Part shown: positions 23,029 to 58,926 of the stretch, piece after piece | Position numbering within the stretch: the first letter of the stretch is position 1 | Layout: each line of letters starts with the position of its first letter | Assembly (NCBI GenBank): GCA_019058365.1 | Contig: JAHPZE010000002.1 | Location: 1-64,000 of the forward strand | DNA length: 64,000 nucleotides | Origin: Promethearchaeota archaeon | Lineage (GTDB): Archaea > Asgardarchaeota > Lokiarchaeia > Sigyniarchaeales > SOKP01 | Direction: 5' to 3' | Notes under the pieces: model-generated | Databases searched by the model: none | Told to the model about the DNA's origin: nothing | What the model saw: the letters and a program-made list of their open reading frames with translations, nothing else | Made by a program: the position numbers and the translations under genes

Positions 23029-23185
23029 GGCCCTTGACGGTCGGAATTGCTTTTAGATCGTATCGATCTGCAACGATAAGTGGTCTCTGACGCTGGGCTT
23101 CAAACCCAGTTATCCTGCGGAGGGGTAGGAGTTCGATAACGGTTAGAAATAATCTGATCTTCGAAAATCTCCTCGAGGGCCGCCA
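23029..23185 (+). tRNA. selC: tRNA-Sec (UCA) with two BHB introns (23046-23079 in the D-arm; 23138-23167 in the T-loop); CCA encoded; 93 nt mature
   Basis: 9-bp acceptor GGCCCTTGA/TCGAGGGCC, 7-bp D-stem with TGGT loop after splicing, 6-bp anticodon stem with TCA at 23100-23102, long variable arm, 4-bp T-stem, G73; directly upstream of SepSecS. Confidence 0.95.
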
Positions 23186-23218
23186 TTATATCAAAAAAAT
23201 AATTACATTGTGTTTTCA

Positions 23219-24580
23219 ATGGTTGACTTTAACAAAATTATTGAATTTTTTGAAACTTTGAATATTCCTGAAAATATGCTTAAGAGAGGACAACTTGTTT
23301 TAAATGAGTTCATGAATCCAATAAAAATTTTATTTGAACAAAGATCTGTACCTAATAAACCTTGGACTGATGAACAAATCGAATTCTTACTTCAAACACT
23401 TTCAAATATGGATACAGATAAAGATATTAATGCTGCTAGAGTAGGTGAAAGAGAAGGAAGAATCGCTTCAAAATTACATTTAAGAACGTCAGCAGGATTC
23501 TGCCATGGTGTGGGAAGAAGTGGATTTTTAACAGCACCTCAACCTAAGGCACCTGGTGGATCAATAATGTATGAACTTTCTAATTACTTAGCTCGTAATA
23601 TTTTAAGAAATACGGGATTACCAAACATAAAGGAGGCAATTGTAGTCCCGTTATGTACGGGAATGTCTTTATCTTTAGCATTGAGCGCTTTAAAATTTAG
23701 TAAGAGTGAAAGAGAATTGAATCATAAAAGAACAGTCTTAGTTCCTCAAGTAGATCATAAATCTCTTTTAAAAGCGATTGATTTTGCAGGTTTTAAAGCA
23801 AAAATTATTCCCGGACAGATTTTTGGAGATGCGGTTAGGATTCCAATAGATGATATAAAAAATCATTTTGATAATGACTGTTTTGCTATCATCTCAATTA
23901 CTAGTTTTTTTCCCCCTCGTGAACATGATAATATTAAAGAAATAAGTAAATTCGCTCAAGAAAAGAATCTTGTACATATCGTTATAAACGCATACGGGGT
24001 TCAAAGCCCAGAATGGATGAAATTAATTCGTTCTGCAATTGATGCAGGGAAGATAGACGCAATAATTCAATCAACAGATAAAAATTTCCTTACTCCTATA
24101 GGTGGAGCTGTAATAGCATCACCGTTAAAAGAAAATATAACTAAAATCAGCCAAGCATACGCGGGTCGCGCCTCAGCCACACCTATTGTGAATTTCTTAA
24201 TTTCAATGTTATCAATAGGAATAAAGGGTTATCAAAAACTACTCAAAGAACAACAACATAATCGTGAAATTCTCGAAAGAAAATTAAGGGAAATTGCTGA
24301 AAAACTAAATGAAAGAATTCTTGATATATATAATCCCGTTGCTGTAGCACTATCATTACAAAATCTAAGTGAAAAAAAATTGTATGCCCTTGGTGGAGCA
24401 TTGTATAACTTAAGAGTAACAGGACCAAGAGTATATAACCCAAAAGAAAACCCATTTGGAACATGTTGTAGCAATTATCCAACCCCATATATCGTAATGA
24501 ATGCTGCAATTGGAGCATCAGAAAAAGATATCATTTCTGCTGTCGAGAGATTTGAAAAAGCATATAACCAAATAGAATAA
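23219..24580 (+). CDS. spcS: O-phosphoseryl-tRNA(Sec) selenium transferase SepSecS
   Basis: GEREGR, HGVGRSG.LTAPQPKAPG, TGMSL, NAYGVQ, QSTDKNF (PLP Lys), YAGRASA. Confidence 0.96.
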   Translation: MVDFNKIIEFFETLNIPENMLKRGQLVLNEFMNPIKILFEQRSVPNKPWTDEQIEFLLQTLSNMDTDKDINAARVGEREGRIASKLHLRTSAGFCHGVGRSGFLTAPQPKAPGGSIMYELSNYLARNILRNTGLPNIKEAIVVPLCTGMSLSLALSALKFSKSERELNHKRTVLVPQVDHKSLLKAIDFAGFKAKIIPGQIFGDAVRIPIDDIKNHFDNDCFAIISITSFFPPREHDNIKEISKFAQEKNLVHIVINAYGVQSPEWMKLIRSAIDAGKIDAIIQSTDKNFLTPIGGAVIASPLKENITKISQAYAGRASATPIVNFLISMLSIGIKGYQKLLKEQQHNREILERKLREIAEKLNERILDIYNPVAVALSLQNLSEKKLYALGGALYNLRVTGPRVYNPKENPFGTCCSNYPTPYIVMNAAIGASEKDIISAVERFEKAYNQIE

Positions 24581-24706
24581 TAATAAATTTAAAACAAATA
24601 TTTTGATGTTCTATTTAAACAGAAATAAAAATAAATAAAAACTAGAAGTTCTATATTTTAATAAAAATTATACGAACAATACTAAATCGACAGAAAGGGA
24701 TTCATA

Positions 24707-25387
24707 ATGGAAAACCGGCTACTAAACCAATTTAATAATGTCATTACTTCTCAATGGCTTTCTAAACAAATAGAAGAGCCATATAGTCCTTTAATTCCTC
24801 GAGAATTGTTTGAAATCGCATATCACACATGTAATTCCGTGACTATGAGAAATATTTATATAAAACAATCTTCAAGTGAAGAACAAGGTGGTTCTAAAGC
24901 AGTTTTATATTCGAATAACAAAAAATTTATAGCAATAGAAGGTTTAGAAAATTCTTTAAAAATTACAAAATATTTTAACGAAGAAACTACTGGTGATAAA
25001 ATTGTAACAGAAATTCAACCGCTACTTACAAAACGAAAAGCGAATTTTACCTCTAAGGATGCAGAAATAAAAATTCAGATTTTAAAAAGCATTTTGGTTG
25101 AGAGAAAACTCGATGAATGTGTAAATTTAGTATTCTTAAAAGGTATAAATCGAAAAATATATTTTGCTATTGGGGATGCTAGAGAATCAGCAGCTGTCGT
25201 TCCAATATTTATGGAAGCTGAAGGCGCCAGTTTGGTTCAATTAGCTTTAAATAAGTGGATGGAAACAGCTCAGAGACTAGAACAAGAACATAATTTTCCT
25301 GATAATCTTGTTCCCGGTATTCTCAAAAATCTTACCCAGATAAAGAAATGGCTCCTTGATTTAATTAGTACATTTCTAGATAAATAA
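24707..25387 (+). CDS. Hypothetical protein
   Basis: 226-aa ORF, host-like composition, no recognised motif. Confidence 0.75.
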   Translation: MENRLLNQFNNVITSQWLSKQIEEPYSPLIPRELFEIAYHTCNSVTMRNIYIKQSSSEEQGGSKAVLYSNNKKFIAIEGLENSLKITKYFNEETTGDKIVTEIQPLLTKRKANFTSKDAEIKIQILKSILVERKLDECVNLVFLKGINRKIYFAIGDARESAAVVPIFMEAEGASLVQLALNKWMETAQRLEQEHNFPDNLVPGILKNLTQIKKWLLDLISTFLDK

Positions 25388-25518
25388 GTATTTTTTCTTC
25401 AAGAATTATTTTTGACTTACATCTAAGAATATATTAATTGAAAACATATTAAAGTAATATTTAGGTGTATAAAGAAAATCGTAAAATAGATGTTTCACGA
25501 TCAAAAAAAATAAAAATA

Positions 25519-25694
25519 TGGGCCATCGGGGAATTGAACCCCGGATCTCAGGTTTTTACTATATACGGACATTTCTAATTTTTTGTCTGTCCGTTGGCCA
25601 TTTATAAGACCTGCGCTTGTTGACCAAGCTTGTAAACCTGTTAACCATTTCAGTTTAGGAAAGAAACCTTCGAAAAGAGCTGAGCTAATGGCCC
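25519..25694 (-). tRNA. tRNA-Ile (UAU) with three BHB introns (25677-25648, 25641-25619, 25601-25554); 75 nt mature without CCA
   Basis: Spliced: GGGCCAT TA GCTC AGCTTGGTTA AAGC G CAGGT CTTATAA ACCTG AGATC CGGGG TTCAATT CCCCG ATGGCCC A; anticodon TAT at 25606-25604; A73. Confidence 0.9.
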
Positions 25695-25872
25695 TGCGAA
25701 ACTATTATATAAGGTACTTTATTTTAAACTTTAAAACATTGTACTTTACTATCTCAAAAGGTATAAAAAGATAAAAATTTTTTTATTGGTGTAATCTGTT
25801 ATATTTATAATTGATATGATAAATAGAGACATTTTTATATTAATAAAAAAAACTTGAAAAAGTTGAATTCTT

Positions 25873-26286
25873 ATGGCTGAAATGTTAACGGATCTCCTTC
25901 AAAATATCTACAAACGGATTGCTCAACTTGGATCCGCAATACAAGAGCTTAAAACATCTCTAGATGGGCTTAATCAAAACATAGAAGATAAAATTTCAAA
26001 TTTAACTGGAAAATTAGAAGAATTTTCTAATGAAATTTTTGTTACTCAAACTAAACATATTGATGTAGTAAAAGAAATTGGAGCAGGAACAACTAAGGAA
26101 TTAAAAGTGATTCAAGAAGGCTTAGGATTGGATGCTCTTACTAATTTAATTAAAAAGCTTGAGGATTTTTCTAAATTATCTGAAAGTGTTCTTAATCAAG
26201 ATACTGTAAATTTATTATTATCTGAAGCGATCGATTCTGTTAAAAGCCTTAAAGAATCTATTAAAGAAGAAGAGGTATTAGAATAA
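25873..26286 (+). CDS. All-helical coiled-coil protein
   Basis: Continuous heptad pattern, no prolines. Confidence 0.75.
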   Translation: MAEMLTDLLQNIYKRIAQLGSAIQELKTSLDGLNQNIEDKISNLTGKLEEFSNEIFVTQTKHIDVVKEIGAGTTKELKVIQEGLGLDALTNLIKKLEDFSKLSESVLNQDTVNLLLSEAIDSVKSLKESIKEEEVLE

Positions 26287-26308
26287 AATATCTTAAAATC
26301 ATGATTAG

Positions 26309-26740
26309 GTGAGAAAATTGGCAGAAAAACTACTTGAAGAAATGATTCAAAAGATAAATCAAATTATGGCTTCACTAGACGGAACAATAGCTCAAATTAA
26401 CCAAATGAGGGGAGCAATTAATCAAATGAGTCAAAATTTCTCTGAACAGACAGTTGCTATGACAGAAAATATTAGATTAATCGTAGAAGTCTTAAAACAA
26501 TTCAGGGTTCAATCTGGTAAAAGTCTTCAGGAACTTTCAGATGATTTTAACCACCAAATAAAAGAGCTTTGGGATAAAAAGGCTATTGAAGCCATAACTG
26601 AAGAAGAAAAGAAGGCTATAGAGATTATAAGACAAGCTTCGAAAACAGTAGCAGACAATCTATATTTTGCTCAATTACTAAACATAATCTCCTCGATTAG
26701 AGAAGAAACTAATAGAATTATTAGTGCAAGTCAATTATAA
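26309..26740 (+). CDS. All-helical coiled-coil protein, similar in architecture to the upstream gene
   Basis: Heptad pattern; similar N-terminus (LAEKLLEEMIQKI versus MAEMLTDLLQNIYKRI). Confidence 0.75.
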   Translation: MRKLAEKLLEEMIQKINQIMASLDGTIAQINQMRGAINQMSQNFSEQTVAMTENIRLIVEVLKQFRVQSGKSLQELSDDFNHQIKELWDKKAIEAITEEEKKAIEIIRQASKTVADNLYFAQLLNIISSIREETNRIISASQL

Positions 26741-26810
26741 AATTATAAAATTTTATTATTTTAACATTTATATTAATTTAAAAAAATTAACCGAAAATAG
26801 ATGATTAAAT

Positions 26811-27716
26811 ATGCCATCAGGCTGTTTTGTAATATTGCTTCCAACTGATTCTGATTATAAGATAATGGGGTATTATTTTAAAGAAGGAAAAATAGATTTT
26901 GAAATTTCAAATGATTTGTTTCTTAGATTAAATCTTGATCACTCAAAAAATGAGTATAATTTGTTAAAAATAAAGGATCTTCAAATTTTTTCATATATTT
27001 ACAAATTCAAAGGAAAAATAACGCGTAAAGCATATGGAATTATAATAGGGTTATTCTTAAATGAGAACGATAAACCAGAGAAATTTCGTTCATCTCTTAA
27101 AGAAGCGGCAGAAGCCTTTGAGATTCCAAGTCTTCATATTCTTACGAAATCAAGAGAAGAATTTGAAATAATATTAAAGGATGTATATCTGGAGCATTTA
27201 GAACCGTTAATTGATATTCTTCAACCTGAAGCGTTAAAAGATAGTATTATTAACATAACTAAATTTATGCTAAGTGGTGAGAAACAAGAAAGAAAAATCG
27301 CTCAAGATCTTGTACAGAAGATTGAAAACGGAGAACATACAAAAATTTCAGAAAACTACAAAATAGCTGAAAAGGCAGTAAAAGCTTTAGATTATGAAAA
27401 AGCAGCTAAATTTTACAATAAAGCAGCTGAAATCGCAGAAAGCCTCTATATAATGGATATAGCTACTTCACTTAAAGAAAAAGGTGATTTCTCTCAACGA
27501 ATTCCTGAATTGTCTAAAGAAAGGGAAAGAATTGTACAAGAAGCCAGAAATGCTCTTAGAAATGAAGATTTTCATACCGCTTATACCTCTTATAGAAAAG
27601 CAGGTGATATTTCTAAAAAATTGGTCCAATTCGATAAAGAGGAGGAATACAGATTAAAATCAAAAGCACTAGAAGATTTTTATAATATCGATCAAAAATA
27701 TAGAAAAAATAAATAA
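26811..27716 (+). CDS. Protein with longin-like alpha/beta N-domain and TPR-like C-terminal helices
   Basis: beta-beta-alpha-beta-beta-beta-alpha pattern; AxxAxxxxDYEKAAxFYxKAAEI repeats. Confidence 0.55.
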   Translation: MPSGCFVILLPTDSDYKIMGYYFKEGKIDFEISNDLFLRLNLDHSKNEYNLLKIKDLQIFSYIYKFKGKITRKAYGIIIGLFLNENDKPEKFRSSLKEAAEAFEIPSLHILTKSREEFEIILKDVYLEHLEPLIDILQPEALKDSIINITKFMLSGEKQERKIAQDLVQKIENGEHTKISENYKIAEKAVKALDYEKAAKFYNKAAEIAESLYIMDIATSLKEKGDFSQRIPELSKERERIVQEARNALRNEDFHTAYTSYRKAGDISKKLVQFDKEEEYRLKSKALEDFYNIDQKYRKNK

Positions 27717-27776
27717 ATTCCAGTTTCTTTATTTGTTATAAATATTTCTTATTAAATATCTTGTTTTCCTCTTGAA

Positions 27777-28607
27777 ATGGTAGATTTCAATCAAAAAATA
27801 ATATGCTTAATAACTGATTTTGGCTCAAAAGGTCAACATTATATAGCTAGTATGAAAGCAGTTATATTAAGTGTTAATCCTAATATAAGAATAATAGATC
27901 TTTCGCATAATATTGCTCCATATTCAATAATAGAAGCTTCTTATGTATTAAAAACAACCTATAAATATTTTCCTGAAGGAACAGTTTTTATAGTCGTAGT
28001 TGATCCCGGAGTTGGAAGTTCTCGTGAAATTTTGGTATTAAAAACGCAATCAAACTACTATTTTATCGGGCCTAATAATGGAATATTTTCTCATATTTTT
28101 ACTAATAGCATTGCTGAGTGTAGAAAAATTCAAAATGATTTATTTTTTAATAAACCAATTTCAAATACATTTCATGGAAGAGATATTATGGCTCCAATAG
28201 GTGCACATTTATTATCTGGGATTCCACTGCAAGAATTCGGTCCTGCTTTTGATCTTACTAAACTACAAGAATTTAAGCTTACACATGATGTTGATATTAA
28301 AAACCAAGTTATTCAATGCTCAATTCAATATATTGACTCTTTTGGAAATGGAACAACTAATATTCAATTAGTAAATAATACCATCAAAGATAGTAGATTT
28401 ATAATAAATGAAGGTCAAGAGATTAATGTTAAATTTAAGGAAAAATCATATAAAGGATTCTTTACTTCACACTTTTCAAGTGTTCCCATTAAATCACTTT
28501 TATTTATTGTTGGATCAACTGGTTTTCTTGAACTTTCAATTAATCAAGGAAATGCCTCTAAGAAATTGGGTTTTTCAGTAGGAGATATTTTAACTTTAAG
28601 GTTATAA
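27777..28607 (+). CDS. SAM hydroxide adenosyltransferase / chlorinase-fluorinase family (DUF62)
   Basis: LITDFG, VVVDPGVGSSR, GPNNG, SNTFHGRDIMAP, IDSFGN, LELSINQG. Confidence 0.93.
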   Translation: MVDFNQKIICLITDFGSKGQHYIASMKAVILSVNPNIRIIDLSHNIAPYSIIEASYVLKTTYKYFPEGTVFIVVVDPGVGSSREILVLKTQSNYYFIGPNNGIFSHIFTNSIAECRKIQNDLFFNKPISNTFHGRDIMAPIGAHLLSGIPLQEFGPAFDLTKLQEFKLTHDVDIKNQVIQCSIQYIDSFGNGTTNIQLVNNTIKDSRFIINEGQEINVKFKEKSYKGFFTSHFSSVPIKSLLFIVGSTGFLELSINQGNASKKLGFSVGDILTLRL

Positions 28608-28623
28608 AGAGAAGAGTATAGAT

Positions 28624-29757
28624 ATGGATAAAGAAATATTGGCTTGTATTGATAAAAAAAATAAAAAATTTTTACAAACTGGTCAGATTTCTAAATATAT
28701 CTTTCCAATGGAAAGAACAGAGGCTCATAAGAAAAATGTAAGCCATTTAATTACAAGGTTTTTTATTTTATCAATAGCACCAGATGGTACGATATCATAT
28801 TTAGTACAAAAACGCGGAAAAAATAAAAAAGCATTCCCAGACTATTTTACTGATTCATCTTCTGGACATATAAATTGGGCGATAAATTTAGATCTAATTA
28901 AAATTAAGAAAAATGCGTTAAGAGAACTTGAAGAAGAATTTGGAATTCCTCCAAGAGAAGTTCAGAAGGTAATATTTTATGATTTAAATACTGAAAGTGA
29001 TGAAATAGCATACATTTTTTTAGGGATTGTTGATTGGAATGTTCCTTTACGTCCGGATCAGAACGAGTTAGATGTTAGATTTAGTAGATTCTATACTAAA
29101 ACTGAGCTTGAAAAATTGTTGGAAAAAGAAAAATGTATAGATTACTCAAAAAAAATTTGGGAAAAACTCTTAAATGCAAATATTTCATCTCTCTTCGAGA
29201 AAAAAATAGAACAATCTATTGAAAAAAAAAATGGAATTGCGCTTTTTATTGGAAGATTTCAGCCTTTGCATCATGGACACATTTATGTTATAAAACAAAT
29301 TTTAAAGTCTAAAAAAAAAATTAAAATTGGAATAGGTAGCTCTCAATTATCCCATACTATAAATGATCCATTTACAAGTGATGAAAGAAAAATGTTCATC
29401 AAAAAGGCCTTACAAAAAAGAGGTATCTCCTCTCAACGGTTTACAATATATAATATCCAGGACATTTATAATGCTAAAAAATGGGTTGATCATGTTATCT
29501 CAATTGTAGGAGAATTTGATTCAGTTTATACTAATAGTGATTGGGTCAGAGAATTGTTTTTTGATAAGGGAATTAAAGTTGAGAAAAAAATAACTATATT
29601 TAAAAAGCATTTCAATGCTAACAATATTAGGAATTTAATCAACAAGAATGATAAAAAATGGAAAACACTAGTACCTAAAGAAGTAGTTCAGCTAATTGAA
29701 AAATTTAATGGTATCAATCGAATTAAATCATTAAATGATAAAAGTAATACTCCATGA
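28624..29757 (+). CDS. Nudix (IDI-like) domain fused N-terminally to NMN adenylyltransferase
   Basis: QKRG..K.AFP, SSGH, ALRELEEEFGI; C-terminal FIGRFQPLHHGH, GIGSSQ, DPFTSDER. Confidence 0.88.
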   Translation: MDKEILACIDKKNKKFLQTGQISKYIFPMERTEAHKKNVSHLITRFFILSIAPDGTISYLVQKRGKNKKAFPDYFTDSSSGHINWAINLDLIKIKKNALRELEEEFGIPPREVQKVIFYDLNTESDEIAYIFLGIVDWNVPLRPDQNELDVRFSRFYTKTELEKLLEKEKCIDYSKKIWEKLLNANISSLFEKKIEQSIEKKNGIALFIGRFQPLHHGHIYVIKQILKSKKKIKIGIGSSQLSHTINDPFTSDERKMFIKKALQKRGISSQRFTIYNIQDIYNAKKWVDHVISIVGEFDSVYTNSDWVRELFFDKGIKVEKKITIFKKHFNANNIRNLINKNDKKWKTLVPKEVVQLIEKFNGINRIKSLNDKSNTP

Positions 29758-30830: not shown

Positions 30831-30939
30831 TATATAAACAAAGTTATAATTATGGTTAGGTTAAAAAATTTCAAGAAATTTTTATAAGATTATTTTATTA
30901 TATGATTATTATAAAAATTAATAAAACTTACTTATAAGA

Positions 30940-31866: not shown

Positions 31867-31931
31867 ATTTATTAACTCTTATTCCAAATGTTATATAAAA
31901 ATTTTGATTATTTTAAATATTTAATTGTGAT

Positions 31932-32555: not shown

Positions 32556-32601
32556 GTAAAATAATAAAATTAATATTTTTTCTCTTATTTAAAATCACAT
32601 A

Positions 32602-33968: not shown

Positions 33969-34101
33969 GCAACGGTTGCCTAGCCCGGTACGGCGCTGGC
34001 TTGGAGTGGGAAGTTTCACCCAGAAAGCCAGTGTGTGAATGCACTCGGGGGTTCAAATAATAAGAATCATCTTCTTATTGGAATAAATCCCTCCCGTTGC
34101 G
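33969..34101 (+). tRNA. tRNA-Ser (GGA) with two BHB introns (34007-34025 at 37/38; 34057-34086 in the T-loop); 84 nt mature
   Basis: Acceptor GCAACGG/CCGTTGC, anticodon stem CTGGC/GCCAG with GGA at 34003-34005, long variable arm GTGT-GAAT-GCAC, G73. Confidence 0.93.
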
Positions 34102-34126
34102 TATTTTTCTCTATAGATTTATTGGA

Positions 34127-38734: not shown

Positions 38735-39330
38735 TTAATCACCTCTTAAGATGTCATCAAATTCCCCTTTATCTATTTTTTTTTGGATAGCTCTTGGATC
38801 TTGTCCTTCTACTGTTAACCCCACTGATAATGCTGTTCCTAACACTGTTTTTATGCCTGCTTTAATTGTTTTATCTAAAAATTTATCTCTTTTAGCCTTC
38901 ACTACATTTTGAACTTGATCAAGTGTCAAATTTCCTATTTTTGTTTCTGAACAACTAGCACTCCCTTTTTCAACACCTACCTCTTTCAGCAATAATGATG
39001 CAGTAGAAGGTGTTTCTATAAAAATTTCAAATTGCTTTGTCTCCGGATCACATTCAATTCTAACGGGTACGGTTAGTCCCCTAAATACCATTGTCTGCTT
39101 GTTGATTTCGTCAACCACATCTTTAATATGTGCATCGAAAATCGAAATAATTTTCGTTTATGCCTGTGGGACCAACAGCAGGACCTTTACCATAATTTGA
39201 CAAAAGCGATATGCTTTATGCAATAGGCGGCCCTCCTGATGCATTTGGGGTCTAATCGAAATGATTATTAAAGATATACACTCCCACCAGTCACAAGAGC
39301 CTTTACAACAATTTTTCCTTTTTCACTCAC
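38735..39330 (-). CDS. rpl11: 50S ribosomal protein uL11, four exons (39330-39281, 39243-39223, 39186-39158, 39129-38735); 164 aa after splicing
   Basis: Joined exons give [46 protein letters not shown]..., the canonical uL11 N-terminus, in frame with the 39118 ORF; GTG start 6 nt after GGTGA. Confidence 0.92.
39130..39157 (-). other. rpl11 pre-mRNA intron 3 (28 nt, near-canonical BHB)
   Basis: Central GCAU/AUGC, intron helix CGAAAAU/AUUUUCG, bulges AA^A and AC^A. Confidence 0.9.
39187..39222 (-). other. rpl11 pre-mRNA intron 2 (36 nt, relaxed BHB)
   Basis: Exon helix AGGGCC/GGUCCU, central GCCU/UGGU (3 of 4 paired), bulges AU^U and AA^A; contains in-frame TAA. Confidence 0.82.
39244..39280 (-). 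other. rpl11 pre-mRNA intron 1 (37 nt, relaxed BHB)
   Basis: Central helix UGGG/CCCA, bulges AG^U and AA^U; frameshifting and contains in-frame TAA. Confidence 0.85.
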
Positions 39331-49124: not shown

Positions 49125-49472
49125 TTAATAATTCTTGGACCGAATTTCATGGAACCATTGATTCCAAAAATTTAATAATTTTTCAAACTTTTCTCTGGAG
49201 ATAGAGTATTCCTTGAATTTACCTTGCTTTGAACTATGAATAAATTTGTGTTCCTCCAAAATTCTAACATGATGGGAGATGGAAGGTTGACTTCTATTCA
49301 AGCTTTTTTCAATATCAGAGAGTAAACATGGTTTAGCATTTAATAAATTTAAAATTAAAAATCTGTCTTCATTACCTATGATTTCCATACATTCTCGTAA
49401 AAACTTATTAGAGGAATTATTCTTGAATTCTTTTTTTATAGTTTTAATTTTATTCTTTGTTAATTCTTCCAT
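49125..49472 (-). CDS. ArsR family regulator (start taken as ATG 49472)
   Basis: IGNEDRFLILNLL, SQPSISHHVRILE. Confidence 0.88.
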   Translation of the reverse strand: MEELTKNKIKTIKKEFKNNSSNKFLRECMEIIGNEDRFLILNLLNAKPCLLSDIEKSLNRSQPSISHHVRILEEHKFIHSSKQGKFKEYSISREKFEKLLNFWNQWFHEIRSKNY

Positions 49473-49509
49473 GTTTTTCTTTCTCTTCTTTCTATTAATT
49501 TTTATACAA

Positions 49510-50355: not shown

Positions 50356-50363
50356 TTTTAAAA

Positions 50364-52655
50364 TTACCAGGTAATTATAACATGAGTTCCCTTATTTTTT
50401 TCAATAAAAATCTTTCCATCCATTTGTTTGGTTATAGTGGATATAAGTTTTAACCCCATTGTATCTGAATTGTTATAATCTACATCTTTTGGAAACCCTA
50501 TTCCATTATCATACACATCTAATAATATTCTATTGTATATGGTTTTTTTCAGTGTAACAATAATTTTTCCTTTATCATTTTTAGAAAATGCGTGTTTTAA
50601 TGAGTTAGATACAAGTTCATTTATAATTAAGCCACAAGCAATAGCTTTGTCTAGACTGAAATCAATATCTTCAATATTCAATTGTAGTTTAATATGTTTG
50701 GAATTTGCTAAATAAGCTTTAAATAGATTATTAACAAGGTTTTTTATGTATTTTGAAAGACAAATCTTATTCAAGTTTTCGGAGTTGTATAATGCTTGGT
50801 GTATTAGTGCCATAACTTTAATACGATTTTGGAAATCCTTAAAAATATGGAGAATTCTTTCATCTTTTACATATTGTTCTTGTAGTACTAATAAACTTGA
50901 AATTATTTGTAAATTGTTTTTCACTCTATGATGGATTTCTTTCAGGAGTATTTCTTTTTCTGCTAGGGAAGATTCCAGTAGGGATTCATTCTTTTTCTGC
51001 TCAGATATATCAATTATATTTATATGTATGGCAGAAACTCCTTGAAATTGAATCTTTTGTAAAAATTGTCGAATATATAAATAATTGCCATTTTTATGCT
51101 TCATTCGGATATCGGATTGAAATGAGGATATATCTTCGTTTAAAATTTGATTATATTTTTCAATAGTCGTTTGTAAATCTTCAGGATGAATATGCTGGGT
51201 TATGGTGTTTAGATTCCAAAATAAGAGTTCATTTATTGAAAATCCTAAAATACTAGATATCCCTTTGTTTGCAAAAATTATTCGTCCATCAGCAATGATA
51301 AGTGTACCTAATAAGGATTGCTCTATAAGCATTCGATATTTTTCTTCACTTTCTCTTAATTCTCTTTCAGTAGAATCACGAACAATAACACCTGCAAGAA
51401 CATTGGCTATAGATTGTAAAAAATTGATATCATCTTTTGAAAATATCCGATGTTCTTTTGTATGAGCTCCTAAAATACCAAATGGGGTGTTTGTTCCTTG
51501 AATAATAACACTCATTCCGCTTATAACATCATGATCCGCAAGAAGTTTTGGGGCATAAAATCGAGTTTCCGTCTTTAGGTTTTCTACTATTACTGGAGTA
51601 GTTTTTAGTAATGTAAAACCTGCTTGTGAATTTATATTATTTTCAACAGTTGCATTTCCAACTAATCCTTTATGCCAACCCACTCCTGCCCGTAATTTTA
51701 AAAATTTCTTATCAGGAAGAATTTCAAGTACCTTTGTAAACTCAACATCCAATATTTCTGCAAGTAAAGATGTTGCTTTTTTAAATAAATTATCAATTTT
51801 TTTTTCTGTAATTGTTTCCAAACCAAATTTGGCAATTAAAGCTTGTCTATGGATATGATTTTCAATGAATTGTTGGATTTTTATGCTTTTCGTTAAATCT
51901 TGGGAAACACAGAGAATTCTGACTATTTTATTTTGTTCATCAAAAATCGGTGCTAGATTTGATGAAAGTTGTATATAATTTCCATTCTTTTTTTTAAATT
52001 GATATTCAATATTTTTAACAAATGTGCCTTCCAATACTTTTTTAATTCCGTCGGTAAGAATCATTTTATCATTAGGATGAATTAACTTATAAATGCTTAA
52101 TGAATCAAGGGTTTCTTCTTTATTATATCCTAAAAAATCAGTAAAAGCATTATTAACATCAAGAAAATTTGTGTTTAGATCTAAGGTATAAATCATAAAT
52201 TTAGAAGTTTTAAGCAATGTTTGAAATTTCTCTTCAGGTAAACATTGAGAACAATTAAAATCTTTTTGCTTATTGTAGGAATTTGTATTTTTTATCTCCC
52301 GTTTAATAGTTGGAATTAAGCGATTTAGATTATCTTCATTAATATAATCATTTACTCCAGTTTCTATCAATGAAATCATCGCTTTTTCATCTATTTCTTT
52401 TCCAATAACAATATAGGGAAGTAATATTTTTTTTTCTTTAATGATTCTTAATATTTCTATTCCGTAAAGAGTCCATGCGTCATAGTCGGATAATAAAATA
52501 TCCCACGCTTTTTTAGATAACACTGAATATAAATTGATATGATTTTCGATGAATTCCAATTGCACTTTGAAGTTATATACTTCTAACTTTTGTATTATTG
52601 AAGATGCCACATCTTTAGAATCAGAAATAAATAATATCTCACATTTTTCACTCAA
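50364..52655 (-). CDS. Sensor histidine kinase REC-PAS-GAF-PAS-HisKA_2-HATPase
   Basis: EIHHRVKNNLQ, NELVSNSLKHAF, DNGIG, MGLKLI; PAS IHPND/IHPED. Confidence 0.93.
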   Translation of the reverse strand: MSEKCEILFISDSKDVASSIIQKLEVYNFKVQLEFIENHINLYSVLSKKAWDILLSDYDAWTLYGIEILRIIKEKKILLPYIVIGKEIDEKAMISLIETGVNDYINEDNLNRLIPTIKREIKNTNSYNKQKDFNCSQCLPEEKFQTLLKTSKFMIYTLDLNTNFLDVNNAFTDFLGYNKEETLDSLSIYKLIHPNDKMILTDGIKKVLEGTFVKNIEYQFKKKNGNYIQLSSNLAPIFDEQNKIVRILCVSQDLTKSIKIQQFIENHIHRQALIAKFGLETITEKKIDNLFKKATSLLAEILDVEFTKVLEILPDKKFLKLRAGVGWHKGLVGNATVENNINSQAGFTLLKTTPVIVENLKTETRFYAPKLLADHDVISGMSVIIQGTNTPFGILGAHTKEHRIFSKDDINFLQSIANVLAGVIVRDSTERELRESEEKYRMLIEQSLLGTLIIADGRIIFANKGISSILGFSINELLFWNLNTITQHIHPEDLQTTIEKYNQILNEDISSFQSDIRMKHKNGNYLYIRQFLQKIQFQGVSAIHINIIDISEQKKNESLLESSLAEKEILLKEIHHRVKNNLQIISSLLVLQEQYVKDERILHIFKDFQNRIKVMALIHQALYNSENLNKICLSKYIKNLVNNLFKAYLANSKHIKLQLNIEDIDFSLDKAIACGLIINELVSNSLKHAFSKNDKGKIIVTLKKTIYNRILLDVYDNGIGFPKDVDYNNSDTMGLKLISTITKQMDGKIFIEKNKGTHVIITW

Positions 52656-53125
52656 ATTTCATACACTACACTAAATTTTCATTTTTTTATTAACTTTAAT
52701 ACTCTATAGAATTCCTTTATTTATAATATTGGAATTTTCATTAAAAAAATATCTGTTTATATTAGCTTCATCCAAGCTTTCATTCTAATTTTCTTAATAA
52801 TATTAACAATATGCTTTAAAATAAATCTTTTGGATACAAATCGAAGTTGGTTAATACTAGTTATCTAAGATAGATAAAGTAAAAAGGAAGACTTAATTAT
52901 TAATTTAACAAAGGATTTTTATGCTAATATAACTTTCAAGGACATTATTCCATTTTTCAATCGTATTCTATCAAATTTATCAGTTTAAAAAATTTATTAA
53001 TATAGTAAAATTTATAAATGAAAAAATGTAAGCAAAACTCATATAAAGAATTTTGATTTTTCATTCAAAATTTTTTATTTCAAAAAAAATAAAATAATAA
53101 AAATAGGAAAATAGGAGAAAAAAAA

Positions 53126-53611
53126 ATGGTAAAACTAACAAATGAAATGAAGGAAGGTTTACGTGTTCCCGGAAAAGGGGGCAGTTTGATTTATTTAGCA
53201 ACATCATCCATAGATGGAAAACCAAATATAGCCGCAATGCGCTACGTAGATTCATATAAAGATGATAAAATTCTAGTTTCAGATATGTTTTTACTAAAAA
53301 CTAAAGCGAATCTTAAAGAGAATCCTGAATGCATTATAACAATATGCCATCCAATGGATTCTGGAAGAGACTGGGTATTTAAAGGTAAGGCAATTGATAT
53401 TGAATACGGTTTTCCTCCAGATTTCGATTGGTATGGTGCTAAAGCTAAAGATATCTTAGATGGTTGGGGTGATTGGCATCATAAAGAACCTCCAGATGAG
53501 GTTCCTCCAGATGTTGTATATTCAAAACCAGCACAACGTGGTGTTGTTGTACTACATGTAGAGGAAATATATTCTATTGAAAAAGGAAAAGTAGGTGAAA
53601 AAATACAATAG
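53126..53611 (+). CDS. Pyridoxamine 5'-phosphate oxidase-like FMN-binding split-barrel protein
   Basis: LATSSIDGKPN, DMFLLKTKANLKENP, FKGKA, VEEIYS. Confidence 0.85.
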   Translation: MVKLTNEMKEGLRVPGKGGSLIYLATSSIDGKPNIAAMRYVDSYKDDKILVSDMFLLKTKANLKENPECIITICHPMDSGRDWVFKGKAIDIEYGFPPDFDWYGAKAKDILDGWGDWHHKEPPDEVPPDVVYSKPAQRGVVVLHVEEIYSIEKGKVGEKIQ

Positions 53612-53623
53612 GAGGGAAGAAAA

Positions 53624-54040
53624 ATGGTAGTAAAACTAACTGATAGAATGAAAGCTTGGATTAAAATTGGTTGTCATTTGAATGTGGCAACAAAAAAGGG
53701 GATCCCATTTGTCACGGTTTCAAGAAATGTGAAATCTGTTTCTGATGATGAGGTAGTATTTGCTTTATCTCAGGATGAATATTCTGTTATTAAATCAGCT
53801 TTATCTGAAAATCCCTGGGTCGCATTTGGAGTATCTCGAGCAGGAGGTATTCGTGCTTGTTATCAATTCAAAGGTAAAGGAACAGTTGACAAAAAAGGAG
53901 ATATCTATAATTTAAAAGTAAAAATATCTGAATTGTATTGTACCAAACCAGGATGTTATGCTGGACAAAGACTTGATACTAAACCCGCTAAAGAATGTGA
54001 AGAATGGGAACATGGTCTCTGGACCGATTTACCAAAATAA
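53624..54040 (+). CDS. Second PNPOx-like split-barrel protein
   Basis: VATKKGIP, LSENP, YQFKGKG, ELYCTKPG.YAG. Confidence 0.8.
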   Translation: MVVKLTDRMKAWIKIGCHLNVATKKGIPFVTVSRNVKSVSDDEVVFALSQDEYSVIKSALSENPWVAFGVSRAGGIRACYQFKGKGTVDKKGDIYNLKVKISELYCTKPGCYAGQRLDTKPAKECEEWEHGLWTDLPK

Positions 54041-54137
54041 TAAACTTATTACTTAAATATAATTTTTTTTTGAAAATAAATTAGGATTGAAATTGAAATT
54101 TTATTGGATTATATAATTAAAGGATAATACAAATAAG

Positions 54138-54455
54138 ATGACTGATATTGAAACTGAAGAAGGAAAAGAAATTAAAGAAAAAGTGAAGAAGAAACCAAAA
54201 AAACCTCCAAAACAAATGCCGTGGTTTATGCCCTTTATGTGTGATGGGTGTGGTGATTGCGTTGATGCTTGTCCACAAGGCGGTATTGCATTATTAGGTC
54301 TCAATAGAAAGGTTCCATCTGCTTGGTTAATTGCTCCAGATTATTGTATTGGATGTGCAAAGTGTGCAGAAGCTTGTCAAAGCTCAGCTGTTCAAATGAC
54401 GGCATATGTGGAACGAGCTATTGAAAGATATAAGACAAAAAAACCTTTCCAATAA
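54138..54455 (+). CDS. 4Fe-4S dicluster ferredoxin-like protein
   Basis: CDGCGDCVDACP, CIGCAKCAEAC. Confidence 0.9.
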   Translation: MTDIETEEGKEIKEKVKKKPKKPPKQMPWFMPFMCDGCGDCVDACPQGGIALLGLNRKVPSAWLIAPDYCIGCAKCAEACQSSAVQMTAYVERAIERYKTKKPFQ

Positions 54456-54507
54456 AGTTTTGTAAAATAAATAAATTTTGAACTGAAAATAAAAGAGGAA
54501 ATGAAAA

Positions 54508-55572
54508 ATGGTATTTGATTTAAGAAGATGTGATTTTTCAAAATGCAAGGGAGAATGCCTTGCAAGATGTTTATTCGTAGATTACGATGAAAAACAAGCT
54601 AAAGCAGATATGGCCAAATTAATTCATCAGCAACCCGCGGATATACTTGCTAAATGTGTAACATGTTATGCGTGTAATGAATTTTGTCCGCGAGGAGCCA
54701 ATCCATGGGATTTGATTAACCAAATGCAAGAAAAAACAGGACTATACATATATCCGGAAGAGGCTAAAAAAACAGCATTAGGGTGGGCAAAAAAAGAGGA
54801 TAAGATTATTAAAGGAGATCCTGGTAAACCAGCAGTGTCCATAGGAGGTTTTGCTGATGCTCTTCCATATGATAAAGTATTTAAAGGCAAATTATTTGAG
54901 GGTTTATCTTTAATAATGGGAGGATCATACGCGTGTAGAGCACCCGAAACTCATATGTGTGATGCGAATTCTTGTTTAGATAATCTACCTTCAATGATTA
55001 AAAATCTTACAGACACAGGTTATAAAGAGATAATTTTCTACCATGATGCTTGCTATGGGTTTGTAACCTCAGAAGCATTAGCAATGATGATTGAAGTTCC
55101 TTTTAAACCTATACACATTATGGAATATATTAGAAATTGGCTCCGTGATCACAAGGATCTTATTACACCATTGAATATGAAAATTGCTTATCAACGACCA
55201 TGTACATCACGATATAACCCCCATGGAGAACTTAAAGAAAATTTTTATGATTGGGTAGAACAAACTTTTGAATTACTGGGTTGCGAGCTTTTAGACCGAA
55301 AATATCAAAAGGAGAACTCTATGTGTTGTAGTTCTGGTATTTTTCCAACCCAGAAAAATCGAGCTATGGGTTACGTTAAAAAAAACCTTCAGGATGCTAA
55401 GGATGCTGGAGCTGAAGCTTACATTACATTTTGTCCAATTTGTACTGCAGTAATGCGGCAAACAGCTAAAAGTATGGAAATGGAACCATATTATATTATT
55501 ATGCTAGTGCAAAAAGCTCTTGGAGAAGATTTACCTATAGGTGGCGCTGGAATAGGTGTACCTGTTCATTAA
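54508..55572 (+). CDS. Fe-S oxidoreductase with CCG (HdrB/D-like) domain
   Basis: CVTCYACNEFCP, YQRPC, SMCCSS, TFCPIC. Confidence 0.85.
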   Translation: MVFDLRRCDFSKCKGECLARCLFVDYDEKQAKADMAKLIHQQPADILAKCVTCYACNEFCPRGANPWDLINQMQEKTGLYIYPEEAKKTALGWAKKEDKIIKGDPGKPAVSIGGFADALPYDKVFKGKLFEGLSLIMGGSYACRAPETHMCDANSCLDNLPSMIKNLTDTGYKEIIFYHDACYGFVTSEALAMMIEVPFKPIHIMEYIRNWLRDHKDLITPLNMKIAYQRPCTSRYNPHGELKENFYDWVEQTFELLGCELLDRKYQKENSMCCSSGIFPTQKNRAMGYVKKNLQDAKDAGAEAYITFCPICTAVMRQTAKSMEMEPYYIIMLVQKALGEDLPIGGAGIGVPVH

Positions 55573-55611
55573 TATTTTTCTAAATTTTTTTTTTTTTAAA
55601 AACATAGGTGA

Positions 55612-56367
55612 ATGATGTTGAGAGTTTTGATTAGTGTTCGTTCATTAGAAGAAGTATTACCTGCAACAAGGGGTGGTGCAGATATTATTGATCTTAAAAA
55701 TCCTAATGAAGGTTCATTAGGAGCTGCTTTTCCCTGGATTATAGATGAATTAAGAAATTTTGATACGAATATGAGATTAAGTGTAGCAATAGGAGATATG
55801 CCAAATTTGCCAGGAACAGCGTCTCTCTCAGCATTAGGAGCTGCTTATTCTGGAGCTAATATAATAAAAGTTGGACTTCTTGGCCCTAAAACTGTAGAGG
55901 AGGGAATATTTTTATTAAAAAAAGTCGTACAAGCAGTAAAAGATTATGATCAAAACATTTTAGTTGTGGGAGCAGGTTATGCAGATTTTAAAACTTTTAA
56001 TGGAATTGATTCATTGAAAATTCCTGAAATATGTAGGTCAGCTGGAGCAGATGTAGCAATGTTAGATACTTTCTCAAAGGATGGGAAGAAATTGTTTGAT
56101 TTCTTAGATTTAAAAAAGTTAAAACTGTTTGTGGATAAAGCTCATAAACTTAATTTATTTGCAGCTCTAGCGGGATCACTCGAATCAAAAGATATTAAAA
56201 CTATCAATAGTCTAGGAACAGATATTATTGGATTCAGAGGTGCTGCTTGCAGTGGATCCGATAGGAAAAATGGAGTTGTAGAAATTAATAGGGTAAGGAA
56301 AATTGTAGAAATCTCACAAAATCTAAATAATAATGGTAGAATTTTAAGCTCTACAACAATAATATAA
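55612..56367 (+). CDS. mfnB: (5-formylfuran-3-yl)methyl phosphate synthase (methanofuran biosynthesis)
   Basis: LISVRS..E, GADIIDLKNPNEGSLGA, IKVGL, MLDT.SKDGK, LAGSL, GFRGAAC. Confidence 0.92.
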   Translation: MMLRVLISVRSLEEVLPATRGGADIIDLKNPNEGSLGAAFPWIIDELRNFDTNMRLSVAIGDMPNLPGTASLSALGAAYSGANIIKVGLLGPKTVEEGIFLLKKVVQAVKDYDQNILVVGAGYADFKTFNGIDSLKIPEICRSAGADVAMLDTFSKDGKKLFDFLDLKKLKLFVDKAHKLNLFAALAGSLESKDIKTINSLGTDIIGFRGAACSGSDRKNGVVEINRVRKIVEISQNLNNNGRILSSTTII

Positions 56368-56414
56368 TTTTTTTTTAAAGAAAATATATTTTATTACAAA
56401 AATTTAATTCAAAA

Positions 56415-56693
56415 TTGATAAAAGTTAGGTTAAAAATTATGAATAATATTAAAATTAAGCATTTTCCTGAAAAATGTTATGCTTGTAAAACTTGTGAATT
56501 AATATGTTCTTATCATCATACGAAAACTTTTCAACCATCAATTTCAAGTATTTCTGTTGAGAGAGACCATATTAACGGGATTTGGCACTGGACTTTGAAA
56601 GATACATGTGATAAATGCCAAGATGAAGAACAGCCTTTATGTGTAAAATTTTGTTTCTATGACGCAATTACTATTGAGGAGGGTGTAGATTAA
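56415..56693 (+). CDS. Ferredoxin-like subunit partner of AOR; start probably ATG 56439
   Basis: CYACKTCELICS, CDKC...PLCVKFC. Confidence 0.85.
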   Translation: MIKVRLKIMNNIKIKHFPEKCYACKTCELICSYHHTKTFQPSISSISVERDHINGIWHWTLKDTCDKCQDEEQPLCVKFCFYDAITIEEGVD

Positions 56694-56694
56694 G

Positions 56695-58614
56695 GTGAGT
56701 AGATATAATATTAAGGGTGGTATCACTGGAAAAATACTTAGAGTGAATTTAAGTGACGAGAATGTAAGAGTAGAAGATAATAAATACGCAGAGAGATGGA
56801 TTGGAGGGAGAGCTCTAAGTAGTTGGATTCTCCTAAATGAATTAGAACCTAATACAAAATGGTCTGATCCAGAAAATTATCTTATCCTTGGTGCAGGTGC
56901 CCTAGTAGGAACGATTGCACCCGCAGCATGTCGAATGAATATTGATACTTTAAATGTCTTCAATAATGGTAAAGGATCATCTAATTTTGGGGGTCATTTC
57001 AGCCCTGAAATGAAATTTGCTGGTTTTGATCAGATTGTTATCAGTGGAAAAGCTGATAAACCAATATACCTCTTTGTAAACGATGGAAAAGCAGAAATAC
57101 GTGATGCTAATCATTTATGGGGTAAAACTACATATGAGACAGAAAAAACACTTAAAAATGAGCTAAATGACAATAAAATTGAAGTTGGGTCAATAGGACC
57201 AGCTGGAGAAAATTTAGTTCATGGTTCTTCTATCATAGTAGATTGTGGCCGAACAGCTGGAGGGTCTGGTGTTGGTTGTATAATGGGTGATAAAAAAATA
57301 AAATCAATTGTAATCCGCGGCAATAAGGAAGTTAGGGTTGCTTACCCCGAGAAATTTGTTGAAAGAGTATATGAAGCATTTCAAAAAATTATGAAACGCC
57401 CTACAGCTAAATTATTTAGAAAAAAAACACTTGGAGGACTAGTATATAACGATTCTGAACAATTCGATGAACTCTGGGAGATGATGCATACTGTAAGAAA
57501 TGCTCAAGATGTACATTGGTCCCGTGAAAAAAGAACAAAAATGATGGGAAAGAATGGCGTTGGTAAGTTTTTCAAGAAAATTCAGGCGTGCTATATCTGT
57601 CCAGTGGGGTGCCAGCCATATTCAGAAATTGAGGAAGGTAAATTCAAAGGTGCTAAGGGTTTAGGATATTGGATAAACTCTGTAATGTGGTCAGGTAAAA
57701 TGGATATTACTGATCCAGATGCATCATTAAAATATCATCTTCGTGCCAATCAGTTAGGTTTGGATGGAGATAACTCTTCCGTCGTGATGGCATGGGCATT
57801 TGAGGCATATGAGAAAGGATTATTAACGAAGGACGATACTGACGGTCTAGAACTAACATGGGGAAATGTAGATGCTATGATGGAATTACAAGAAAAAATT
57901 GCGTACCGTAAAGGATTTGGAGATTATCTCGCAAATGGCGTTATTGAGGCAGCAAAAAAACTAGGAAAAGGTTCAGAAAAATTTGCTATTCACCAAAAAA
58001 ATCAAGACACTCTTGATCCTTATCGAATTGCAAAAGGTTGGTCTCTAGCATGCGCAACATCACCCGTGGCAGGGCGTCATATGAGAGGTAGTATTAATAT
58101 ACCGATTGCATTTGGTCCTAAAGGAGCTAAATTTAATCCATATTCTTATGAAGACCAGCCTCCAATAGTATTCTGGGAATTGCGTTCAAAAGAAATAGAG
58201 GATATAATTGGAATTTGTGTATATGTTGGTACTTGGTCAGGAGTATATGCACTTGAACCCTCTGATTATGTTAGCTTAACTAATTTAGCACTTGGAACTA
58301 ATTTAAATGAAGAAGAATTTATGTTGCTTGGACAGAAATCATATAACTTAGAAAAAGCTTTTAATACATTACATGTGGGATTTACCCGTAAGGAAGATTT
58401 ACCGCATCGAAGATTTTTTGAAGACCCAATTCAATCTGGACCCCATAAAGGTGAGAAATTAGATATCAATAAGTATAATTCAATGCTGGATAAATTTTAT
58501 GAACTTCATGGTTGGGACAAAAAAACTGGATGGCAAACCCGTGAAACTTTAGAAACTTTAGGATTAAAGGATGTAGCTGAAAAATTAGCTAAAGCAGGAC
58601 GTTTAATTGAATAA
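56695..58614 (+). CDS. Tungsten aldehyde:ferredoxin oxidoreductase family protein
   Basis: GKILRVNLS, SNFGGHF..EMKFAGFD, IGPAGEN, ANQLGLD, FYELHGWD. Confidence 0.93.
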   Translation: MSRYNIKGGITGKILRVNLSDENVRVEDNKYAERWIGGRALSSWILLNELEPNTKWSDPENYLILGAGALVGTIAPAACRMNIDTLNVFNNGKGSSNFGGHFSPEMKFAGFDQIVISGKADKPIYLFVNDGKAEIRDANHLWGKTTYETEKTLKNELNDNKIEVGSIGPAGENLVHGSSIIVDCGRTAGGSGVGCIMGDKKIKSIVIRGNKEVRVAYPEKFVERVYEAFQKIMKRPTAKLFRKKTLGGLVYNDSEQFDELWEMMHTVRNAQDVHWSREKRTKMMGKNGVGKFFKKIQACYICPVGCQPYSEIEEGKFKGAKGLGYWINSVMWSGKMDITDPDASLKYHLRANQLGLDGDNSSVVMAWAFEAYEKGLLTKDDTDGLELTWGNVDAMMELQEKIAYRKGFGDYLANGVIEAAKKLGKGSEKFAIHQKNQDTLDPYRIAKGWSLACATSPVAGRHMRGSINIPIAFGPKGAKFNPYSYEDQPPIVFWELRSKEIEDIIGICVYVGTWSGVYALEPSDYVSLTNLALGTNLNEEEFMLLGQKSYNLEKAFNTLHVGFTRKEDLPHRRFFEDPIQSGPHKGEKLDINKYNSMLDKFYELHGWDKKTGWQTRETLETLGLKDVAEKLAKAGRLIE

Positions 58615-58726
58615 TAAATATAATAATGAGATTATATATCTACTTCAATTATTCTCTTTATTATAATCGAATAAATCATTACAAATAAAAATTAAAATAA
58701 AAAAAATAATATTTCTCTTAGATGAA

Positions 58727-58926
58727 TTACTCCTTTTTAAATAGATTTCCACATCCCCCACACTTTACATTTTTTGCATAAACCGGAGTACCCTGCTTTA
58801 GCAGTATGCTGAAAGAGCAATACTTATACTGTAGTAAAGTACATTACTTTTATCCGGTTCTTCATGAAGCATGCGTGGATTATCATTTCCACATTTAGGA
58901 CATTTTACTCTTTTATAATCAGCCAT
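58727..58926 (-). CDS. Small Zn-ribbon protein, two exons (58926-58826, 58796-58727); 56 aa after splicing; absent from the ORF track
   Basis: MADYKRVKCPKCGNDNPRMLHEEPDKSNVLYYSM|QGTPVYAKNVKCGGCGNLFKKE; the two CxxC halves are in different frames unless 29 nt are removed. Confidence 0.82.
58797..58825 (-). other. Pre-mRNA BHB intron (29 nt) in the Zn-ribbon gene
   Basis: Intron helix AGUAU(U)GCU/AGCAUACU, central CAGU/GCUA (3 of 4), bulges AU^A and AA^G, exon helix GUACUUU/AGGGUAC. Confidence 0.8.

Follow-up and report, generated by a model that had tools for sequence, protein, structure and literature searches.

Short inserts with bulge-helix-bulge junctions in tRNA and protein genes of an Asgard archaeon: candidate introns spliced by the tRNA machinery

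Within the 64 kb at the start of contig C34 in an Asgard archaeal genome, a stretch that we call the window, eleven short inserts interrupt three tRNA genes and two protein genes, those of ribosomal protein uL11 and of a zinc-ribbon protein. We put the probability at roughly 85% that they are archaeal bulge-helix-bulge (BHB) introns, in strict or relaxed form, which their sequences predict to be spliced from both tRNA and mRNA precursors. Archaeal protein genes are treated as uninterrupted, and in the literature that we searched the one accepted exception within coding sequence is the cbf5 gene of Crenarchaeota. The window belongs to G000, a 4.74-Mb metagenome-assembled genome (MAG) of about 30% GC in 54 contigs, scored as 100% complete with 6.6% estimated contamination; G005, G017, G023, G043, G047, G048, G058 and G069 designate other genomes of the same genus.

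In the BHB layout that we used, the 5' side consists of a 4-nucleotide (nt) exon strand, two exon bulge bases plus one intron bulge base, and an inner helix, and the 3' side of a 4-nt intron strand followed by two intron bulge bases plus one exon bulge base. Every possible insert was scored for this layout in the tRNA regions, and the best scorers were the inserts already given in a first-pass annotation of the window. That annotation had claimed seven tRNA inserts (34, 30, 30, 23, 48, 19 and 30 nt) and four mRNA inserts (37, 36, 28 and 29 nt), all ending in AA or AC, bounded by a 4-nt central helix strand and, in tRNA genes, mostly placed at non-canonical sites. All 11 are present at these lengths; nine end in AA and two in AC; five of the seven tRNA introns lie in the D-arm or T-loop; and the 4-bp central helix pairs at four or three of its positions in each of the 11 (in the 48-nt tRNA-Ile intron only in a shifted register). 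The interrupted genes and their inserts are as follows.

23029-23185, plus strand: tRNA-Sec(UCA) gene, 93 nt when spliced, 9/4 fold, CCA encoded; called by ARAGORN on the spliced sequence
23046-23079, plus strand: tRNA-Sec intron 1, 34 nt, D-arm; central helix GTCG/CGAT, 4/4; ends in AA
23138-23167, plus strand: tRNA-Sec intron 2, 30 nt, T-loop; TTCG/CGAA, 4/4; 5-bp outer helix and long inner helix
25519-25694, minus strand: tRNA-Ile(UAU) gene, 75 nt when spliced; ARAGORN tRNA-Ile(tat)
25648-25677, minus strand: tRNA-Ile intron 1, 30 nt, D-loop; TCAG/CTGA, 4/4; ends in AA
25619-25641, minus strand: tRNA-Ile intron 2, 23 nt, D-loop; TGGT/GTCA, 4/4 (two wobble pairs); 7-bp inner helix; ends in AC
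25555-25602, minus strand: tRNA-Ile intron 3, 48 nt, position 37/38; TTAT/GTAA, 4/4 only in the +1 register, with the same product
33969-34101, plus strand: tRNA-Ser(GGA) gene; ARAGORN tRNA-Ser(gga) on the spliced sequence
34007-34025, plus strand: tRNA-Ser intron 1, 19 nt, canonical position 37/38; TTGG/CCAG, 4/4; 8-bp outer helix
34057-34086, plus strand: tRNA-Ser intron 2, 30 nt, T-loop; GTTC/GAAT, 4/4; 9-bp inner helix
38735-39330, minus strand: uL11 gene in four exons, 39330-39281, 39243-39223 (21 nt), 39186-39158 (29 nt) and 39129-38735
39244-39280, minus strand: uL11 intron 1, 37 nt; TGGG/CCCA, 4/4; in 10 of 52 alleles
39187-39222, minus strand: uL11 intron 2, 36 nt; central helix 3/4 in G000 and 4/4 in five of ten alleles; in 10 of 52 alleles
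39130-39157, minus strand: uL11 intron 3, 28 nt; GCAT/ATGC, 4/4; 8-bp inner helix; in 12 of 52 alleles
58727-58926, minus strand: zinc-ribbon gene, exons 58926-58826 and 58796-58727; 56 amino acids when spliced, CPKCG lying towards the N-terminus and CGGCG towards the C-terminus
58797-58825, minus strand: zinc-ribbon intron, 29 nt, frame-shifting; central helix 3/4 in G000 and paired in 99% of cells across 26 alleles

The evidence from protein genes is clearest in uL11, the first gene of a uL11-uL1-uL10 cluster and one with a single match in G000. Its three inserts lengthen it by 101 nt, and in-frame stops occur in intron 1, so the gene cannot be read straight through; the listed open reading frame (38735-39118, minus strand) matches only positions 27-58 of the Ribosomal_L11_N profile, plus Ribosomal_L11. 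Removal of the three inserts yields an N-terminal core that is the same as in intron-less alleles. To place these inserts among relatives, which a search with the uL11 protein found mostly deposited as Promethearchaeota or Promethearchaeia MAGs (Lokiarchaeia-type Asgard; for example Loki_b32, ABR05/06, bin108 and bin132) and in some cases under other Asgard names, we gathered 52 distinct uL11 alleles. Nearly half (25) have no insert, and the remaining 27 carry one to three, distributed over four sites that are occupied in 10, 10, 3 and 12 alleles; the fourth site, found in the three alleles, lies 11 nt downstream of site 2. All three uL11 introns of the window occur together only in G000 and its nearest relative, which by the sequences compared is G005 (98% identity in the C-terminal part of uL11). 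No insert was seen in any of the uL11 loci L025-L030, which represent the order's three remaining families. Spliced in silico, the 27 interrupted alleles all yield one conserved core, with many synonymous differences in the micro-exons, and this rules out decay of the N-terminal exons. We likewise rejected a truncated uL11 starting at an internal GTG (39118), as the upstream micro-exons are under purifying selection in the 27 interrupted alleles.

Exon and intron bases moreover change together. In alignments A1-A3 the predicted pairs are formed in 94% of cells for intron 1, 91% for intron 2 and 97% for intron 3, as compared with 19-67% in a control where the 3' partners were slid. Two to four pairs per intron (two in intron 3) have changed on both sides, and at most one of 500 shuffles reaches the observed covariation score. 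In intron 1, for instance, the exon change TGGG to AGGG, which is synonymous for glycine (GGT to GGA), is matched by CCCA to CCCT in the intron, a joint change that is direct evidence for exon-intron pairing. Intron 2 has the further feature that its flanking exons form a 6-bp helix with each other.

The zinc-ribbon gene, present in 53 of the 54 genomes of the genus that were searched (G000 included), gives the same picture. Among 30 loci fetched we found 26 distinct alleles with a 29-nt insert at the same spot and three without it. Excision of 58825-58797 joins AGT AT|G CAG, and the intron-less alleles (L235, L250 and L255) read ...YYSMQGTPVY... exactly across the predicted junction. Overall, 94% of cells are paired (alignment A4), nine pairs have changed on both sides, among them both-sided changes in seven of the eight inner-helix pairs, and none of 500 shuffles reaches the observed score. 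A second insert of about 30 nt, visible in L244, the G017 allele, about 40 nt downstream of the common intron and ahead of ...MKCG, suggests that this gene has a further intron site.

The tRNA genes are hidden in the raw sequence: ARAGORN reports 0 tRNAs in the unspliced window, Rfam likewise finds no tRNA there, and three GC-rich spots have acceptor-stem ends. After excision of the seven inserts at the BHB junctions, ARAGORN calls tRNA-SeC(tca), tRNA-Ser(gga) and tRNA-Ile(tat), the first of these with a 9-bp acceptor stem and a 4-bp T stem. The central helix is complete at the stated junction in six of the seven introns, and a micro-exon of only 6 nt (TGGTTA) precedes the second intron of tRNA-Ile. 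On the whole of G000, ARAGORN recognizes no more than 11 tRNAs without introns, a number that rises to 30 once canonical introns are permitted; with so few tRNAs in a genome scored as complete, most of its tRNA genes must be multiply or non-canonically interrupted. The window's tRNA-Ile (25519-25694, minus strand) has a UAU anticodon, which is unusual in archaea, where AUA is mostly read by a modified CAU tRNA.

The first-pass annotation had also predicted BHB inserts in coding genes genome-wide. We compared all open frames of G000 with the 2.27-Mb chromosome of its congener G023 by tblastn in both directions, setting junctions by protein alignment, and obtained seven clean inserts that are absent from G023.

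C26:18160-18129: 32-nt insert in a BcrAD_BadFG ATPase gene
C9:585-554: 32-nt insert in an LsrF/DeoC aldolase gene
C9:32935-32964: 30-nt insert in the AMP phosphorylase gene, within DKHSTGG
C46:48704-48733: 30-nt insert in an acyl-CoA dehydrogenase gene
C52:2085-2114: 30-nt insert in the RNA polymerase A' gene, within GHFGH|IELA
C13:17126-17155: 30-nt insert in the gene for Alba
C7:91536-91565: 30-nt insert in a JAMM protease gene; poor motif

A RadA paralogue can be added, in which the Rad51-family match ends at profile position 203 and a 31-nt insert has a complete central helix (4/4) and a 7-bp inner helix. The prediction thus held for RNA polymerase A', AMP phosphorylase, acyl-CoA dehydrogenase, LsrF aldolase, BcrAD, Alba and the RadA paralogue. 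Pfam halves are consecutive across the junctions, with BcrAD_BadFG matched at 2-135 and then 137-271, and RNA_pol_Rpb1_1 at 2-73 and then 74-312; RNA polymerase A' and AMP phosphorylase each have a single match in G000. The interrupted genes thus include two that are essential and single-copy, uL11 and A', the polymerase's largest subunit. We scored 12 mRNA introns of G000, with junctions taken from alignment to intron-less homologues or, for the RadA paralogue, from the family consensus motif. The central helix is perfect in 8 of the 12 (a null of 4.9% for the best of two registers gives a binomial P of 1.5e-8) and pairs at three or more positions in 11, the JAMM insert being the exception; the penultimate base is A in all 12, and ten end in AA. 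The inserts are scattered across many contigs and functions; their hosts are a mixture of informational and metabolic genes, with the common trait that the insert sits inside a very conserved motif. They are also sparse, in well under 1% of genes, given that about 2,400 open frames of G000 match G023 at 60% identity or more.

Descriptor scans proved a poor way to count such introns. A crude scan of G000 for BHB-like sites whose removal fuses two frames gave no excess over a fake-pairing control, and a stricter descriptor gave an excess of only about 12% of sense over antisense hits; we dropped these scans as intron counters because adjacent genes and AT-rich hairpins swamp the signal. With an added requirement for conservation in G023 the scan recovered six true introns, and it revealed no convincing intron common to G000 and G023. 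Several split matches were rejected as introns for low identity and lack of a BHB, namely those of HdrA-like paralogues (C21:107313-107369 and C9:30401-30451) and C35:88752-88823, and several low-identity in-frame gaps with stops were rejected as antisense or low-complexity artefacts. The two large HdrA-like paralogues break in tblastn near ...FLCNWCSY... of the G023 protein, and these breaks may be due to an in-frame TGA (selenocysteine) rather than to an intron. For its part, G023 offers four candidate inserts of 30 nt; stop-bearing, in-frame 30-nt inserts lie within 335752-336420 (minus strand), 1381846-1384146 (plus strand) and 888375-888674 (plus strand), where the G000 genes are uninterrupted (86%, 91% and 61% identity, respectively).

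Intron content differs between close relatives. With a query of 100 amino acids spanning the RNA polymerase A' junction, an uninterrupted match was found in 42 of the 54 genomes of the genus, G005 included; in five the match is 30 nt longer and has internal stops, in four others it is split in two at query residue 50 (with 59-76 bases between the halves), and in one more only the downstream half is matched. The alignment of G000 with G005 shows a clean 30-nt difference. Four of the five inserts were aligned, and the insert lies at GHFGH|IELA in G000, G017 and G069; that of G048 sits elsewhere in the same segment, as perhaps does that of G047. At the shared site the central helix changes on both sides, from GGAC/GTCT in G000 to GGGC/GCCT in G017. 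A wider draw brought such inserts in five genera of the same family, and none was found in the 17 matched genomes from the order's other three families. Two loci, L266 (G058:C159:8937-9321) and L267 (G043:C27:30260-30624), seemingly hold two adjacent inserts with about 5-6 coding bases between them, a micro-exon that would be extreme in its shortness. Such presence and absence among close relatives (RNA polymerase A' being interrupted in G000 and not in G005) offers a natural system for the study of intron gain and loss without a spliceosome.

A five-base AUUUC apical loop, with C-G or U-G as its closing pair, is seen repeatedly in uL11 introns 1 (39254-39266) and 3 (39140-39152), in most zinc-ribbon alleles, at the fourth uL11 site (L066:1438-1497) and in the second RNA polymerase A' insert of G043 (L267); the introns of AMP phosphorylase and of the RadA paralogue have similar loops. 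This recurrence could reflect shared ancestry or a binding site.

As to the enzymes, the first-pass annotation had named the architecture of the EndA endonuclease and the RtcB ligase as points to establish, both lying beyond the window. G000 encodes two EndA paralogues and one RtcB on other contigs, and the EndA pair is of the two-subunit type with the crenarchaeal specificity loop. EndA alpha (198 amino acids), whose best solved-structure match is the catalytic subunit of Aeropyrum pernix (3p1z_B, E = 1e-35), keeps Tyr/His/Lys; its GISKPR aligns with DVEKPR, the lysine matching K44, a residue that we take to lie in the crenarchaea-specific loop of A. pernix EndA and to matter for activity. 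The second paralogue (206 amino acids) has Asp in place of the catalytic His, as expected of a putative structural beta subunit. The alpha gene is on contig C26 (L102:1453-2049, minus strand) and the beta gene on C12 (L103:1420-2040, minus strand). Judged by sequence, an alpha subunit with the crenarchaeal loop and a non-catalytic paralogue are what a broad-specificity EndA would have. Asgard archaea have indeed been assigned an (alpha-beta)2 EndA with this loop, which is tied to cleavage of relaxed motifs (Kaneta et al., PMC5829648).

We propose that the inserts would be transcribed within tRNA and mRNA precursors, that exon and intron bases would pair at each junction to form a 4-bp helix between two 3-nt bulges, that EndA would cut the precursors there, and that RtcB would join the resulting 2',3'-cyclic-phosphate and 5'-OH ends. 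For uL11, three excisions would have to take place in a span of about 150 nt, with the 21-nt and 29-nt micro-exons being joined, before the N-terminal domain could be translated; in the zinc-ribbon mRNA, excision would restore the frame between the two CxxC knuckles; and the same process would serve at least seven other protein genes of G000. We infer that EndA and RtcB act on mRNAs in the cell, and what has been called a splicing system would most simply be the ordinary tRNA-splicing machinery acting on mRNAs, with no separate apparatus. That its targets are highly expressed, or that it bears on the origin of eukaryotic introns, is conjecture. If the proposal is true, gene expression in this lineage routinely involves mRNA splicing by the tRNA machinery, which will have to be squared with coupled transcription and translation. 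The junctions listed here are exact predictions.

It is conceivable that the interrupted protein genes are merely pseudogenes or assembly artefacts, which the cell does without or for which it has another copy. Indeed, the inserts hold stops or shift the frame, and G000 is a MAG in many contigs with some estimated contamination. Yet uL11, RNA polymerase A' and AMP phosphorylase have one match each in a genome scored as complete, the same inserts recur with sequence differences across many independent assemblies, the amino acids of the micro-exons are kept as synonymous sites change, and the structure of the inserts covaries; we regard this explanation as extremely improbable. Nor do we give much credit to ribosomal bypassing, in which the inserts would stay in the mRNA and be skipped during translation, as in phage T4 gene 60 and yeast mitochondrial byp elements. 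That the inserts lie in coding sequence, are short, fold into hairpins and in some cases have a stop close to their 5' end would suit it, but bypassing needs matched take-off and landing codons, whereas no matching codon pairs flank the inserts and the junctions fall in all three phases, splitting codons (A|AT at uL11 intron 3, AT|G in the zinc ribbon). Bypassing has no need of exon-intron pairing at both junctions, yet the BHB central helix is conserved and covarying, and the same type of insert occurs in tRNA genes, which are never translated. This mechanism is very unlikely.

Excision from RNA by agents other than EndA and RtcB, be it another hairpin-recognizing endonuclease or self-cleavage, has a small chance of being correct. 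The JAMM insert, which lacks a good BHB, would be in line with it, as would the C-AUUUC-G apical loops of several unrelated introns, which could be a protein-binding site. However, the junctions have the geometry of EndA substrates, which the window's tRNA genes share, and G000 has the broad-specificity type of EndA. Self-cleavage fares no better: group I and II introns have a ribozyme core of hundreds of nucleotides, the inserts are too short for this at 19-48 nt, and in the unspliced window Rfam detects neither a ribozyme nor a group I/II intron (0 families at the gathering score, and chance-level matches only at E up to 10). BHB splicing by EndA and RtcB remains our preferred interpretation. 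Several observations weigh against it: only one of the four central-helix pairs forms in the JAMM insert; the 48-nt tRNA-Ile intron has a BHB only in the shifted register, where its outer helix is poor; several inserts are of relaxed form, one of their flanking helices being weak, such that cleavage hinges on the substrate range of EndA; and the genomes are metagenome assemblies, with 6.6% estimated contamination in G000, a worry that is countered by the same insert picture in independent assemblies.

Among known systems, Crenarchaeota have a BHB intron in the pre-mRNA of the pseudouridine synthase gene cbf5 (Watanabe 2002; Yoshinari 2006; Yokobori 2009, PMC2738675), which resembles those of G000 in being short, in lying within coding sequence, in occurring with a hetero-oligomeric EndA and in being gained or lost among related species. 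A BHB intron of this type, inside coding sequence, is found in uL11, the zinc ribbon, RNA polymerase A', AMP phosphorylase, acyl-CoA dehydrogenase, LsrF aldolase, BcrAD, Alba and the RadA paralogue. The cbf5 case, however, involves one gene and one intron in Crenarchaeota, whereas in the Asgard G000 at least eight protein genes are interrupted, besides one with a poor motif, and they include uL11, RNA polymerase A' and Alba, and uL11 by itself has three introns in G000, four sites across the family and micro-exons of 21 and 29 nt. In 2020, cbf5 was stated to be the sole case of an mRNA BHB apart from the authors' own example in a 5' untranslated region of Haloferax (Schwarz et al., PMC7714728). 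The latter, in the HVO_1309 mRNA of Haloferax volcanii (PMC7714728), is similar in that an mRNA is a substrate of the tRNA-splicing endonuclease, as would be the case in G000; it differs as a single element of an untranslated leader, in a euryarchaeon with an alpha'2 EndA, the G000 inserts being in coding sequence.

Multiple, non-canonical tRNA introns are on record for Thermoproteales and Asgard archaea, with a heavy load in some Asgard tRNA genes (PMC11291895; bioRxiv 10.64898/2026.10.13.758758), and a 31-nt T-loop intron of the Lokiarchaeota tRNA-Sec has already been published (PMC4989117). The seven tRNA introns of the window are of this kind, lying in the D-arm, the T-loop or at 37/38, with up to three per gene and an (alpha-beta)2 EndA, and like the published ones they are missed by standard tRNA finders. 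Those papers cover tRNA genes only, the word 'mRNA' being absent from bioRxiv 10.64898/2026.10.13.758758, and our search of the literature on Asgard BHB or protein-coding introns found only tRNA work. HAC1/XBP1 splicing and the RTCB-dependent 'SOS splicing' that frees animal mRNAs of transposons (PMC12779559) also remove a structured insert from an mRNA with no spliceosome and with joining by an RNA ligase, RtcB-type in animals. They differ in the endonuclease and in the motif that is recognized, relying on Ire1 stem-loops and on paired inverted terminal repeats, respectively, and the inserts are non-homologous; this is an analogy, not membership. What stands out against the known cases is the scale, the interruption of a single essential gene by several introns that leave micro-exons, and the rapid gain or loss in an Asgard family. 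Annotation is affected as well, since gene callers truncate or split interrupted genes and standard tools miss most of the tRNAs.

A bolder view is that these mini-introns are a currently spreading population that enters tRNA and protein genes alike, for example through reverse splicing by EndA and RtcB followed by copying into DNA, and that in an Asgard family they amount to a general, spliceosome-free architecture of interrupted genes. It would fit the presence of several uL11 sites within 50 nt, the micro-exons of down to a few bases, the differences in introns between the closest genomes and the similar C-AUUUC-G loop in unrelated genes. We hold it only tentatively, with the odds against it. 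If it were true, the splicing of uL11 and RNA polymerase A' transcripts could be a point of regulation.

Some further features were recorded in passing. One neighbours the tRNA-Sec gene of the window.

23210-24577: Pfam match to SepSecS, directly downstream of tRNA-Sec

Beyond the window on the same contig, at C34:146925-147402, about 141 nt rich in stops break the match to a G023 frame of 106 amino acids, and no BHB was found when one was looked for in this stretch. Lastly, the plus strand of the concatenated G000 genome holds one stop-free frame of 14,557 codons, which may encode a giant protein.

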